Assembly: GCA_038870455.1 (NCBI GenBank)
Contig: JAWCPB010000017.1
Span: forward strand, 1 to 24,440
Direction: 5' to 3'
DNA: 24,440 nt
Source of the DNA: Candidatus Micrarchaeia archaeon
GTDB taxonomy: Archaea; Micrarchaeota; Micrarchaeia; Burarchaeales; JACRGF01
The notes under the pieces were generated by a model. The model worked only from the letters and a program-made list of their open reading frames with translations, did not search any database and was not told the origin of the DNA. This document shows, in pieces, positions 20,326-24,205 of this stretch (position 1 is its first letter; every line of letters starts with the position of its first letter). A program made the position numbers and the translations under genes.

Positions 20326-21693
20326 ATGGCCAAGCTTGAGGAAATTCCCGCTCTCAGGGAATGGGAGAGAATAGGTTCCCACTCACATGTCAAGGGGCTC
20401 GGCATCAAGGACGGCAAGGTTGAGCGCATCGGCGGAGGGCTGGTAGGCCAGATCGCCGCGCGGCAGGCCGCGGGCGTTGTCGTTGAGCTGGTCAAGAAGG
20501 GAAGGTTCGCGGGCAGGGCCATTCTCATGGCCGGCCCCATGGGCACGGGCAAGACCGCCATCGCGCTGGCCATCGCCAAAGAGCTCGGCAGGGACGTGCC
20601 GTTCGTGCAGATTTTTGGCTCAGAAATTTATTCCTCCGAAGTGAAGAAGACAGAATTCCTCATGCGCGCGCTCAGGCGCGCCACGGGCACGCGCATTCAC
20701 GAGATGCGCACGATTTACGAGGGGGAAGTCACCCACCTCGACTTCGACATGGTGCCCCACCCGTACAATCCCTACCAGAAGATTCCCAAAAGCGCGACCA
20801 TCAAGCTGCGCACGAAAAGCGAGGAAAAACAGTTCAAGGTCGATTCAACTTTCGCCCAGGCGCTCATCCAGAACAACATAACAATTCACGATGTTGTCCA
20901 GATTGACGCCGAGACAGGCAGGATAGCCTCTCTCGGCAAGAGCGCCGACTGGAAGCCCGAGGAAAGCGAGAAGGTGGACCTCACCACCCAGCAGCTCGTC
21001 GAAGTGCCGAAGGGAAAAGTGCAGAAGGAAAAGGAGTTCGTGTACGTGCTGACCCTGCACGACCTCGACATGGCGAGGGCGCGGCGGGGAGGCGGCTTCG
21101 CCTCCTTCTTTTTCGGAGGCGGCAGGGAGGAGGAGCTGACCGAGGAGGACCGCGCGGCGGTTGACGAGGAAGTCAAGGGCATGGTGCAGTCGGGCACGGC
21201 CGAGATAATCCCCGGCGTGCTGTTCATTGACGAGACGCACATGCTCGACATAGAAGCCTTTTCCTTCCTGAACAGGGCCATTGAATCCGAGCTCGCGCCC
21301 ATCATCATTTTCGCCACGAACCGCGGCATCGCGACCATCCGCGGCACTGAACAGAAGTCGCCGCACGGCATTCCCATGGACCTGCTGGACCGCATGCTGA
21401 TAATCAACACCTATCCGTACGAGAAGGACGAGGTGGCCGAAATCATCCGCCTCCGCTGCAGGGAGGAAAAGGCCGTGCTGTCCGACAGAGCGCTGCAGCA
21501 CCTCGTGGATACAGGCTACAGGCGGAGCCCGCGCTACGCCACCCAGCTTCTCGCGCCGGCCGCTGCCATCGCCGCGGCCAGGAAGGCCGCCGAGATAGAC
21601 GTTGAGGACATAAAGCTGGCCGAACAGCTTTTCGTCGACATCGACAAGAGCGTCGAGCACGTGAAAAAGTTCGAGAAAGAGTTCGTGAGCTAA
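20326..21693 (+). CDS. TIP49 / RuvB-like AAA+ ATPase (TBP-interacting protein)
   Basis: GSHSHVKGLG, Walker A GPMGTGKT, GSEIYSSEVKKTE, Walker B FIDETH, ATNRG, SPHGIPMDLLDR. Confidence 0.96.
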   Translation: MAKLEEIPALREWERIGSHSHVKGLGIKDGKVERIGGGLVGQIAARQAAGVVVELVKKGRFAGRAILMAGPMGTGKTAIALAIAKELGRDVPFVQIFGSEIYSSEVKKTEFLMRALRRATGTRIHEMRTIYEGEVTHLDFDMVPHPYNPYQKIPKSATIKLRTKSEEKQFKVDSTFAQALIQNNITIHDVVQIDAETGRIASLGKSADWKPEESEKVDLTTQQLVEVPKGKVQKEKEFVYVLTLHDLDMARARRGGGFASFFFGGGREEELTEEDRAAVDEEVKGMVQSGTAEIIPGVLFIDETHMLDIEAFSFLNRAIESELAPIIIFATNRGIATIRGTEQKSPHGIPMDLLDRMLIINTYPYEKDEVAEIIRLRCREEKAVLSDRALQHLVDTGYRRSPRYATQLLAPAAAIAAARKAAEIDVEDIKLAEQLFVDIDKSVEHVKKFEKEFVS

Positions 21694-22254: not shown

Positions 22255-22500
22255 ATGCAGGGCGCTGTTAAGAACACCACGGGTTTGTGCGAGAAACTCA
22301 ACAGGCACCTTTTCGCCGCCGCGGCATTTCTCACCGTAAGCTGGCCCGGCGAGCTGGATGAAAACGCAGTGAAGTTCTTCGGCGCCGCCGCGCTCGCGAG
22401 CGCCGCAATCAAAACCGTCTCCTTCCTGCGTGCGCGCGCGGCAGAGAAGCGCATCCGGAGAGAGCTTTCGGAGCGCGTGCTCTGCGACAAAATCCGATAG
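22255..22500 (+). CDS. Hypothetical small membrane protein
   Basis: Fills the gap. Two short hydrophobic stretches and a basic tail. Confidence 0.45.
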   Translation: MQGAVKNTTGLCEKLNRHLFAAAAFLTVSWPGELDENAVKFFGAAALASAAIKTVSFLRARAAEKRIRRELSERVLCDKIR

Positions 22501-22520
22501 CCGCCGGTCGTGTCGGATTG

Positions 22521-22540
22521 ACAATTATTTTTAACTTGTT
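22521..22540 (+). promoter_or_regulatory. Putative TATA box for the tRNA-Gly transcript
   Basis: TTATTTTTAAC about 25-30 nt upstream of tRNA G1 (22559). Confidence 0.6.
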
Positions 22541-22558
22541 TTTCCAAAGCACCTATGT

Positions 22559-22696
22559 GCGGCTGTAGTCTAGCCTGGTAGGACTCGACCTTGCCATAAC
22601 TTGCCGATGGCGAGTATGCGAAAAGGTCGTAGCCCGGGTTCAAACGCGCTGCTGGCGCAGGCGGTTCCAGCAGGGCTGAAACTCCCGGCGGCCGCA
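22559..22696 (+). tRNA. tRNA-Gly(GCC) with two introns: 37/38 (22597-22623) and 59/60 (22645-22682)
   Basis: Exons 22559-22596, 22624-22644 and 22683-22696 give a 73-nt cloverleaf with anticodon at 22593-22595. Both introns form BHB motifs (central helices UUGC/GCGA and UUCA/UGAA). Confidence 0.93.
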
Positions 22697-22766
22697 TTGC
22701 TGAACCGCAGGGGCTTCAGCTCGGGCACTCCTATTTACCCGAAAGTTGCAACCGCGCCGGTGAAAA

Positions 22767-22890
22767 TCCCGGCCGCCGCATGACGGCAATGGCTCGCCCT
22801 TCAGGCCATTTGCAATCCAGCTTTGAGGGCTGCGGCGGTAGTCTAGCCTGGTAGGACTTTGGCCTTCCAAGCCAACAACCCGGGTTCAAA
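22767..22890 (+). tRNA. Circularly permuted tRNA-Gly(TCC): 3' piece (nt 60-73) at 22767-22780, 5' piece (nt 1-59) at 22832-22890
   Basis: The pieces join into a perfect 73-nt cloverleaf with anticodon at 22866-22868. Leader 22752-22766 and trailer 22891-22900 form a BHB at 59/60. Confidence 0.92.
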
Positions 22891-22902
22891 CTCGGTGCGG
22901 GA

Positions 22903-24051
22903 TTAGAGCGCGAGAAAGAAGCCAGCTGAGAAAGCATCGCCCAGGCCTACGGTGCTCCTTATGTGCCGGATGCGATGGGCGGGCAGAAGGGCAAGCGAAA
23001 AATCTCCTTTCAGCGAACTAACTCTTGCCGCGATTTCTTTTGGGAGTTTTGCGCGCGGAGGCCTGAAGCGACGCAGCTCCCGCAAGTATGGAAATGTGCC
23101 CTTCTGTGCACGGTAGGCCGCGAGGCGTGAGGCAAAGCGAAGAGCGCGTTTGAGCGAATCCTCGGGGACTCGGCGTGAGAGCGCCAGGTGAAATTCGGCC
23201 GTATGCAGGATGACTGTGGGGCATATGCCGAGGAGGCGCGGGAGCGCGGCAACGCCCTCCTCCGGAAAGGCCAGCGCTCTGCGCGCGGCTTCGAGCTCGA
23301 GCTCGTTCAGCCCCAGCGAAGTGCAGAGAGGCGCGATGGCTTTCAGCGCCTGTCTCAGGACGCTCTCGCTCTGGAAGCTCCCGAGCTCGAGATGGAGCTC
23401 CAGCTCGGGATTTAGGCTTCTCCACTTGCGGATGAGGCCGGAGAGCGCGGCAATCCTGTGCGCGCAGGCGGGGGAAAGGAGGTGAAATCCCCCGAGCGCG
23501 ATTTTGCCTATCCGCGGAAGCTCGCGCTCGAGCGCGCGCTCGAACTCTCCGTCCAAACGCATCTCGGAATTTTCTGGATCGAACGTGGCGATGAATCGGT
23601 TGGAGCGAGGAATCTTTTTCCCAAACACAGCGTCACCCTCGCTGAACTCAAAGACGAAGTGCGTTCTCGCCTCCGCCTCACGGAAGAAGCTCCGGCTCGG
23701 GACAAAGCCCTCGGAAGCGGCGAGCAGCACATTTTTGTGAAGGAGACGCGCGAGCTCGGTGCTCTTTGTGTTCGCGTGCAGAAAGCACTTGACGCCGAGG
23801 TGGGCGGCCGCCTGGGCCATATTGCCAGCCTGCCCGCCTACACGCTTTTCCGCGATAACAAAATTCCGCAGGATGAAGTCTGCGGTTGTGCGGTCGATGA
23901 CGACCTCGCGAGCCCTGCCCTGCAGCATGCAGTCAATGAGAGGCGAAAGCGGAGGGGGAAGGTTGCTCACATCGCTGCCGCGTACGCGGATAATCGCATC
24001 GATGTTTGTATTAAACACGAACGCAGCGCGCGATGGCAGCGCGGATTTCAT
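22903..24051 (-). CDS. ADP-dependent glucokinase/phosphofructokinase family protein
   Basis: FNTNIDAI, RVGGQAGNMA, HFVFEFSEG, PRSNRFI, SLGLNELE and catalytic STVGLGDAFSAG. Start taken at MKSALP because the longer ORF overlaps the tRNA. Confidence 0.93.
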   Translation of the reverse strand: MKSALPSRAAFVFNTNIDAIIRVRGSDVSNLPPPLSPLIDCMLQGRAREVVIDRTTADFILRNFVIAEKRVGGQAGNMAQAAAHLGVKCFLHANTKSTELARLLHKNVLLAASEGFVPSRSFFREAEARTHFVFEFSEGDAVFGKKIPRSNRFIATFDPENSEMRLDGEFERALERELPRIGKIALGGFHLLSPACAHRIAALSGLIRKWRSLNPELELHLELGSFQSESVLRQALKAIAPLCTSLGLNELELEAARRALAFPEEGVAALPRLLGICPTVILHTAEFHLALSRRVPEDSLKRALRFASRLAAYRAQKGTFPYLRELRRFRPPRAKLPKEIAARVSSLKGDFSLALLPAHRIRHIRSTVGLGDAFSAGFFLAL

Positions 24052-24088
24052 GAAACAATTAAAAACTGCGACATTAAAATAGTACTGA

Positions 24089-24205
24089 GCGGCCGTCATC
24101 TAGCCTGGTAGGATCTGAGCTTCCCATGACCTTTTTTCCGAAGTTAAGCGGAAAAGAAAGGGACGGAGACAGCTCATTGCCCGGGTTCAAATCCCGGCGG
24201 CCGCA
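24089..24205 (+). tRNA. tRNA-Gly(CCC) with a 44-nt canonical intron (24127-24170)
   Basis: Exons 24089-24126 and 24171-24205 give a 73-nt cloverleaf with anticodon at 24123-24125. BHB central helix UUCC/GGAG. ATTAAAAA upstream. Confidence 0.93.

Follow-up and report, generated by a model that had tools for sequence, protein, structure and literature searches.

Here, we describe a cluster of glycine tRNA genes from a Micrarchaeota-type (ARMAN-2-like) archaeon, in which the gene for tRNA-Gly(UCC) is found in a permuted order, i.e., with its 3′ exon in front of its 5′ part on the same strand. The cluster lies in a stretch of 24,440 nucleotides (nt) (contig JAWCPB010000017.1, assembly GCA_038870455.1), which was analyzed as a whole and is called the window below. 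The genome that holds the window is designated G000 (1.04 Mb in 51 contigs, 60% G+C, 90% complete), and G001, G002, and so on are its relatives. Taken as a whole, we consider it likely, with good confidence, that the Gly(UCC) gene is permuted at position 59/60, is matured from a dicistronic precursor that it shares with the tRNA-Gly(GCC) gene in front of it, and is derived from an intron-bearing ancestor.

Two neighboring glycine tRNA genes interrupted at position 59/60

The tRNA-Gly(GCC) gene occupies 22559–22696 (G1 at 22559 and A73 at 22696, read base by base), and it is on the + strand, as are all other elements of the GCC-UCC pair given below. It carries two introns of the bulge-helix-bulge (BHB) type. 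Exon 1 (positions 1–37, 22559–22596), delimited by reading of the sequence, by the precursor fold, and by the ARAGORN read of the spliced product, is followed by a canonical 37/38 intron of 27 nt (22597–22623), which was absent from the description in the first-pass annotation. This intron was read by hand and its removal gives a perfect cloverleaf; it is also present in G001, with a U·G to C-G change within the intron hairpin. Exon 2 (positions 38–59, 22624–22644, with A59 at 22644; sequence, fold, and spliced product) is separated from exon 3 (positions 60–73, 22683–22696, with T60 at 22683; sequence and spliced product), which does not encode CCA, by a second intron of 38 nt at 22645–22682. 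The minimum-free-energy fold of the precursor consists of the cloverleaf and a strict helix-bulge-helix-bulge-helix (hBHBh′) motif at 59/60 made up of the T stem, a 4-bp TTCA/TGAA helix, and two 3-nt bulges; the intron itself belongs to a family that we call type A, described below. When the exons were joined by a script, ARAGORN read a 73-nt tRNA-Gly(gcc) with all stems paired and the canonical T arm restored, so that the cis intron at 59/60 that had been proposed for Gly(GCC) is confirmed by both the fold and the spliced cloverleaf.

The 3′ exon of Gly(UCC) begins exactly 70 nt past A73 of Gly(GCC). As the first-pass annotation had read it, the gene is broken at 59/60 like its neighbor, and its 3′ exon (positions 60–73, i.e., T, CCCGG, CCGCCGC, and A; 22767–22780) precedes its 5′ part (positions 1–59 with the anticodon UCC; 22832–22890). 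The 3′ exon pairs perfectly with the T-stem and acceptor strands of the downstream 5′ part, which contains no canonical intron and was recognized by the sequence, by ARAGORN, by Rfam, and in the joined product. Between the two lies a spacer of 51 nt (22781–22831; fold z score 0.08) that is closed by the acceptor stem. The leader (22752–22766) consists of the outer-helix strand CCGCGCCGG (22752–22760), the TGAA (22761–22764) that pairs with the T-loop TTCA, and a bulge AA before the 3′ cleavage site, and the trailer (22891–22900) consists of the bulge nucleotide C22891 after the 5′ cleavage site and the outer-helix strand TCGGTGCGG (22892–22900). Together, leader and trailer form a BHB with a 9-bp outer helix (22752–22760 with 22892–22900), a 4-bp TTCA/TGAA helix, and two 3-nt bulges with the predicted cleavage sites AA|C and AA|T. 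In the fold of the permuted precursor (22745–22905), which holds the acceptor, D, anticodon, and T stems as well as the leader-trailer helix, the strict BHB conformer has −65.2 kcal/mol and is only 0.4 kcal/mol above the minimum (−65.6 kcal/mol). The segments joined by a script are read by ARAGORN as a 73-nt tRNA-Gly(tcc) with every stem paired, and the same is true of G001 and G002. Please note that, on the unspliced DNA, ARAGORN calls one gene at 22831–22903 with a false 3′ end and the Rfam match covers model positions 8–63 only; thus, ordinary finders miss the permuted layout, and genome annotation of such archaea will list Gly(UCC) as missing or truncated.

The two junctions are built alike. 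Both read TTCAAA|C ... TGAAA(C/A)|TCCCGG and the folds agree with this reading, in line with the common BHB core that had been pointed out before. The cognate 5′ and 3′ junction strands pair at −27.3 and −27.9 kcal/mol, vs −18.6 and −18.7 kcal/mol when crossed; this advantage of about 9 kcal/mol indicates that the outer helices discriminate between the partners, i.e., that they keep the GCC and UCC strands apart as had been suggested.

The permuted gene seems to have no ordinary counterpart. Only three Gly-type 5′ bodies are found in G000, those of GCC, UCC, and CCC, and all of them are inside the window; the tRNA-Gly(CCC) gene (24089–24205, + strand; Rfam 43.8 bits; ARAGORN Gly(ccc) with a 44-nt intron) has no intron other than the canonical one, and its T loop is continuous. 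An ARAGORN “tRNA-Gly(tcc)” on contig C14, considered as a second UCC gene, is really a Thr(UGU) gene with a D-arm intron. On these grounds, the permuted gene is the sole source of tRNA-Gly(UCC) seen, and a further UCC gene was not found in G000, G001, or G002, which are 89–95% complete.

Gly(UCC) in related genomes

We classified Gly(UCC) from the loci retrieved from 29 genomes of the order; a state was not assigned for G005, G006, G010, G011, and G022. The gene is permuted in G000, G001, and G002, which are all three genomes of family f1 and represent two genera, G001 being congeneric with G000, and the permuted layout was found in none of the other 26 genomes of the order (five of them being those without an assigned state). 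In seven genomes, Gly(UCC) is in the ordinary order and carries a cis 59/60 intron: G003 (19 nt), G007 (56 nt), G012 (95 nt), G016 (43 nt), G018 (44 nt), G025 (43 nt), and G017, the last with further introns. In G021 the gene is broken at 59/60 and the contig ends before any 3′ exon, and in G015 and G023 the break is at another place of the T arm. A continuous T loop is found in G004, G008, G009, G013, G014, G019, G020, G024, G026, G027, and G028; in the last two of these, the contig ends within the T arm. Gly(UCC) lies directly downstream of Gly(GCC) on the same strand in nearly all genomes of this set. The seven genomes with the cis intron are from sister families of f1 and have the syntenic GCC-UCC tandem; a search of relatives for just such a non-permuted gene had been proposed as a check on the origin of the permutation, and it turned out positive.

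Beyond the order, the pattern of a BHB-type 3′ exon followed by a Gly 5′ start within 60 nt occurs in 5 of 401 sampled genomes of the class, which holds more genomes than these. Three of the five are the permuted genes of f1, and the remaining two (G013 and G025) are Gly(GCC) genes with a 59/60 intron, after which Gly(UCC) begins 7–8 nt later. The UCC body was also found at 64 metagenome loci: the gene is intact at 49, has a cis 59/60 intron at six, and is cut or unclassifiable at nine; none of the 55 classifiable loci is permuted, and records of the window’s own genome were possibly excluded from this set.

The joined UCC tRNA is identical in G000 and G001 and differs from that of G002 at six positions, four of which make up two compensated acceptor pairs (5:68 from C-G to U-A and 6:67 from G-C to U·G, from G000 to G002), indicating that the upstream 3′ exon co-varies with the downstream 5′ part. 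In the leader, G001 has an A for G22756, which turns a G·U into an A-U pair. The spacer within the permuted gene varies between G000 and G001 and is only 11 nt long in G002. With its conserved and co-varying segments, and with no ordinary copy beside it, the permuted Gly(UCC) reads as a functional gene.

Two further features of the relatives were observed. The anticodon loop of Gly(UCC) is CCTCCAA in G016 and G025 (loci L005 and L010), i.e., C rather than the near-universal U is at position 33. On the metagenome contig L127, GCC and UCC both have 59/60 introns and the GCC 3′ exon is fully complementary to the UCC acceptor too, so that the UCC 5′ part could, in principle, be completed by the 3′ exon of either gene.

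The 59/60 introns and their families

A scan of T-arm junctions gave the T-loop state of 30 classifiable tRNA genes in G000: 18 are continuous, 11 have a cis 59/60 intron, and one is permuted. The scan detects only G53-TTYRAN T loops with partners on the same contig, and the counts are therefore lower bounds; genome-wide scans for trans partners were swamped by chance matches, and the same-contig results alone were used. The 59/60 site is the most common site of non-canonical introns in G000 (at least 11 genes). With at least 11 of 30 genes carrying such an intron, a neighbor of this kind is expected about one time in three, and the coincidence alone says little. The first-pass annotation had taken the shared 59/60 site of the two neighbors as a snapshot of how the permutation arose; this is not supported as stated, given this frequency and given that G001 has the permuted gene without a 59/60 intron in Gly(GCC).

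G000 and G001 are 93% identical over the locus, with a clean 38-nt indel that is exactly the GCC 59/60 intron. Type A introns, to which this intron belongs, have the form CGC...GCGC.TTCAGC....GCTGAANN and fill the GCC gene in G002 and G025 and the UCC gene in G016, G025, and G018. Compared with four of them (G002 GCC, G025 GCC, G016 UCC, and G025 UCC), the G000 GCC intron gave z scores of 5.8–7.1, with 0 of 200 shuffles as good. Among the 14 type A pairs listed, 13 gave z scores of 4.6–17 (0 of 200 shuffles as good), and the pair of G002 GCC and G018 UCC gave 3.3 (p = 0.010). A profile made of the five foreign type A introns found the G000 GCC intron as its top genome-wide match, with a weak E value of 0.24. 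As the type A similarity extends across GCC and UCC genes, the GCC 59/60 intron is most simply regarded as ancestral to family f1 and as recently and precisely lost in G001. In G025, where they are 7 nt apart, GCC and UCC both carry homologous 59/60 introns. The ancestor of f1 probably had homologous 59/60 introns in both GCC and UCC, as G025 has now, and G025 is a better living model of the state before the permutation than the GCC-UCC pair of the window.

In a second kind of insert at 59/60, type B, the first element duplicates the 3′ junction, TGAAATCCC, and a TTTTCTTT/AAAGAAAA hairpin comes next. Type B is present at the 59/60 site of both Gly genes in family f6 and also forms the trailer of the permuted gene of G002 (L012:1560–1610); the other type B loci are L011, L015–L019, L033, and L034 (G012, G018, G021, G007, G015, and G023).

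Transcription of the GCC-UCC pair

A promoter-like A/T box of the TATA type is located upstream of Gly(GCC) at 22522–22536 (+ strand). It scores 8.0–8.5 bits with a home-made matrix trained on 26 other tRNA upstream regions, neither gene of the GCC-UCC unit being included, and it is identical in G001. The 3′ end of the box is 23–27 nt before G1, and in most tRNA genes of G000 an A/T box ends about 19–28 nt before G1. The only matches above 6 bits in 22480–22900 are in this box, which bears out the earlier statement that the sole clear promoter-like box precedes GCC. The linker sequence CTATTTACCC scores 1.0 bit vs a training median of 10.4. By reading of the sequence, no T run of five or more follows GCC, the UCC 3′ exon, or the trailer.

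The linker (22697–22751) contains no promoter-like box and, as described before, folds into two hairpins (GCTGAA/TTCAGC and TCGGG/CCCGA), both of which appear in its minimum-free-energy fold. The fold is unexceptional (z score −1.22, with 24 of 200 shuffles folding equally well) and no covariation was found in the hairpins, the stems being invariant between G000 and G001; we found no support for them as functional elements.

The spacing between GCC and UCC is 3–8 nt in eight relatives, indicating that the pair was ancestrally one transcription unit. It seems to us somewhat more probable than its opposite that G000 likewise makes one GCC-UCC precursor with three BHB motifs from the box before GCC.

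Predicted processing enzymes and neighboring genes

A 387-residue open reading frame (ORF) on contig C25 of G000 aligns over its full length to residues 3–387 of PDB 4fz2 (E value 3e-135), which we take to be the three-unit ε2 splicing endonuclease of ARMAN-2. Its Pfam domains are tRNA_int_endo and tRNA_int_endo_N, and the protein is a predicted three-unit splicing endonuclease of the ε2 type, which has a broad specificity; the same type was found in 40 of the 41 relatives searched. G000 also has an RtcB ligase gene and a candidate RNase P RNA (48.2 bits, E value 6e-13). RNase P is needed for the permuted gene because the spacer precedes G1.

A second homologue of the splicing endonuclease in G000 is of the α-type, with about 182 residues (C2:65932–69174; Pfam tRNA_int_endo, E value 1e-13). 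The RtcB match is split (C16:7577–10399, − strand), with Pfam positions 1–74 and 47–426 about 1.4 kb apart in one open frame of 1087 residues; the gap looks like an intein-sized insertion. Elsewhere in the window, the 5′ end of the tRNA-Gly(CCC) gene (24089–24099, + strand) overlaps by 11 nt with the first listed start codon of an ADP-dependent sugar kinase ORF (22903–24099, − strand), the true start of which is probably further inside. A TIP49/RuvB-like AAA ATPase is encoded at 20326–21693 (+ strand; Pfam TIP49, E value 1e-137); with this query it was matched in a patchy way, in three of 41 relatives (G000, G001, and G008), and for this reason it was dropped as a lineage marker.

Proposed maturation and origin of the permuted gene

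In the maturation pathway that we propose, a single transcript would start from the box before GCC and run through both genes, and the endonuclease would cut the three BHB motifs. RtcB would then join the GCC exons and, for UCC, join A59 to U60, which would give a circular intermediate; RNase P and a 3′ nuclease would remove the 51-nt spacer from it, and CCA would be added.

As to the history, the ancestor of f1 would have had the GCC-UCC dicistron with a homologous 59/60 intron in UCC and probably in GCC too. A rearrangement would have broken UCC inside its 59/60 intron and placed the 3′ exon in front, either by a tandem duplication after which the outer exons were lost or by excision and reintegration with a new break in the intron, and G001 would later have lost the GCC intron precisely. 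Since a cis intron at 59/60 is seen in the UCC gene of the same tandem in seven sister-family genomes, the permutation of UCC very probably arose at an existing intron. This is the part of the earlier duplication-and-loss proposal that stands, i.e., the orthologous UCC genes have an intron at the junction site; the other part does not have its counterpart in the sequences, as we saw neither leftover outer exons nor an intermediate with duplicated genes. Duplication-and-loss and excision-reintegration give the same product and are not told apart here.

We also considered the linker as a relic of the ancestral intron. The stretch 22697–22766 gave a z score of 3.2 (p = 0.013) against the GCC intron and of 2.4 (p = 0.03) against the G016 UCC intron, the p values being uncorrected for 18 tests; the profile of the five foreign type A introns had no linker match at E values up to 100, and the trailer has no similarity to type A introns (z score about 0). 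With weak pairwise scores and no profile match, the linker is not established as such a relic.

More tentatively, the GCC-UCC dicistrons of the order might be read as a series that records the birth of a permuted gene, from the intact tandem through a tandem with both introns (G025) and a permuted second gene to the loss of the GCC intron. The step to permutation might then have occurred through recombination between the paralogous, near-identical intron-exon junctions of co-transcribed neighbors, and the second cistron might have persisted as it needed no promoter of its own. We regard this extended scheme as rather less probable than not.

Points against the proposal and alternative explanations

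Several observations, here and in the alternatives that follow, weigh against the permuted, dicistronic, and intron-derived gene as we propose it. The intron-first direction is taken from the distribution of the states only, because the endonuclease tree (30 proteins) left 10 of its 27 inner forks open, did not resolve the families, and did not join G002 to G000 and G001. Neither outer-exon remnants nor duplicated UCC intermediates were found in the 29 genomes of the order or the 64 metagenome loci. Run X2 has the intron-less GCC form with G001-like substitutions on a 22-kb contig and run X1 has the intron-plus form, and the two are not independent support, as all three runs that cover 22300–23100 are DNA contigs from one hot-spring study. 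In G002 the BHB is relaxed: the bulge at the 5′ site measures 5 nt, and the outer helix is weak. The score of the candidate RNase P RNA is under the Rfam gathering score of 84 bits, and the promoter matrix is of our own making.

The most serious alternative is that the permuted Gly(UCC) is real and is transcribed separately from its own promoter in the linker, a possibility to which we give clearly less credit than to the common precursor. A conserved TATTTA (22733–22738) lies 28 nt before the UCC 3′ exon, a distance that resembles the box distance of other tRNA genes, and G000 and G001 agree in all of the 26 nt around it but vary in the flanks; selective conservation is, however, not demonstrable from two sequences at 93% identity. 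The same sequence is the one with the low matrix score given above, and a start about 25 nt past TATTTA would fall in or after the leader strand 22752–22760, which would remove the outer helix of the BHB. In G003, G021, and G023, UCC has a good box of its own in a longer GCC-UCC spacer, indicating that independent promoters do evolve at this locus, and the permuted genes of Thermofilum pendens are reported to have a promoter just upstream of the 3′ half (PMC3218864).

A split tRNA, i.e., adjacent halves made as separate transcripts and joined in trans without a circular precursor, appears quite improbable. It would suit G002, where a run of seven Ts, which could terminate transcription and so yield a split gene, is found after the 3′ exon, only 11 nt separating this exon from the 5′ part, and adjacent split halves are known for the tRNA-Asp of Aeropyrum (PMC3218864). 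The 51-nt spacer of G000 and G001, on the other hand, has neither a T run nor a promoter-like box, and the permuted precursor folds as one molecule in which the acceptor stem closes the spacer. The incompleteness of G000 and its fragmentation into contigs leave some room for yet another reading, in which the UCC 3′ exon and the truncated 5′ part would be relics of a decaying gene and a working Gly(UCC) gene would be in an unassembled part of the genome. We give this very little credence: the same layout is found in three genomes of two genera, none of which has another UCC copy, the joined tRNA is kept identical between G000 and G001 and compensated in its acceptor pairs in G002, and the BHB helix of the permuted gene is maintained.

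Comparison with known systems

In the literature searched, archaeal permuted tRNA genes are reported for two T. pendens genes only, both described in 2011 in one species (PMC3218864); the excerpted text of PMC5829648 cites solely this report for permuted tRNA. For DPANN or Micrarchaeota, we found no published permuted tRNA in this literature and, judged by titles, no new archaeal case since 2019. The locus described here extends permuted tRNA genes to a second archaeal lineage, one with another enzyme type (ε2).

ARMAN-2 (Candidatus Micrarchaeum) has many non-canonical introns, including 59/60 introns, and its enzyme cleaves a 59/60 intron in vitro (Fujishima 2011, PMC3239211). It resembles G000 in the ε2 enzyme type and in the frequent 59/60 introns; no permuted tRNA is described for it in the main-text account, the supplementary tRNA table aside (PMC3239211). 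Type IV (59/60) permuted tRNA genes are known from Cyanidioschyzon merolae, for which a duplication-and-loss model has been published (Soma 2014, PMC3978253). The junction is the same as here, and so are the proposed order of BHB cleavage, circle, and end processing and the model of an origin from an intron-containing gene; the C. merolae genes, however, are eukaryotic nuclear genes whose circular intermediates were shown experimentally (PMC3978253), whereas the circle that we propose for our locus is a prediction.

The permuted genes of T. pendens are the closest match (PMC3218864). As in T. pendens, the gene here is archaeal, has the 3′ part before the 5′ part on one strand with a BHB at a 59/60 T-loop junction, and is a single-copy essential gene to which ordinary finders give a low-scoring partial match. 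The differences are several. The lineages differ at the level of phyla, T. pendens being a crenarchaeon and G000 a DPANN archaeon, Micrarchaeota-like and with an ε2 endonuclease; the isoacceptor here is Gly-UCC, unlike those of the T. pendens genes; the spacer measures 51 nt here and 11 nt in G002, vs 7 and 1 nt in T. pendens; and CCA is encoded in the T. pendens genes and not here. A canonical intron is lacking from the permuted gene here, again unlike in T. pendens, and the gene is the second in a tRNA tandem, apparently without its own promoter. Finally, there are sister-family orthologues here that carry a cis intron where the junction lies, and such orthologues are not reported for T. pendens in the excerpted text (PMC3218864). 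We see the main value of the locus in this orthologous series, with intact, intron-containing, and permuted forms of Gly(UCC) at the same place, which makes the intron-to-permutation model testable with real sequences.

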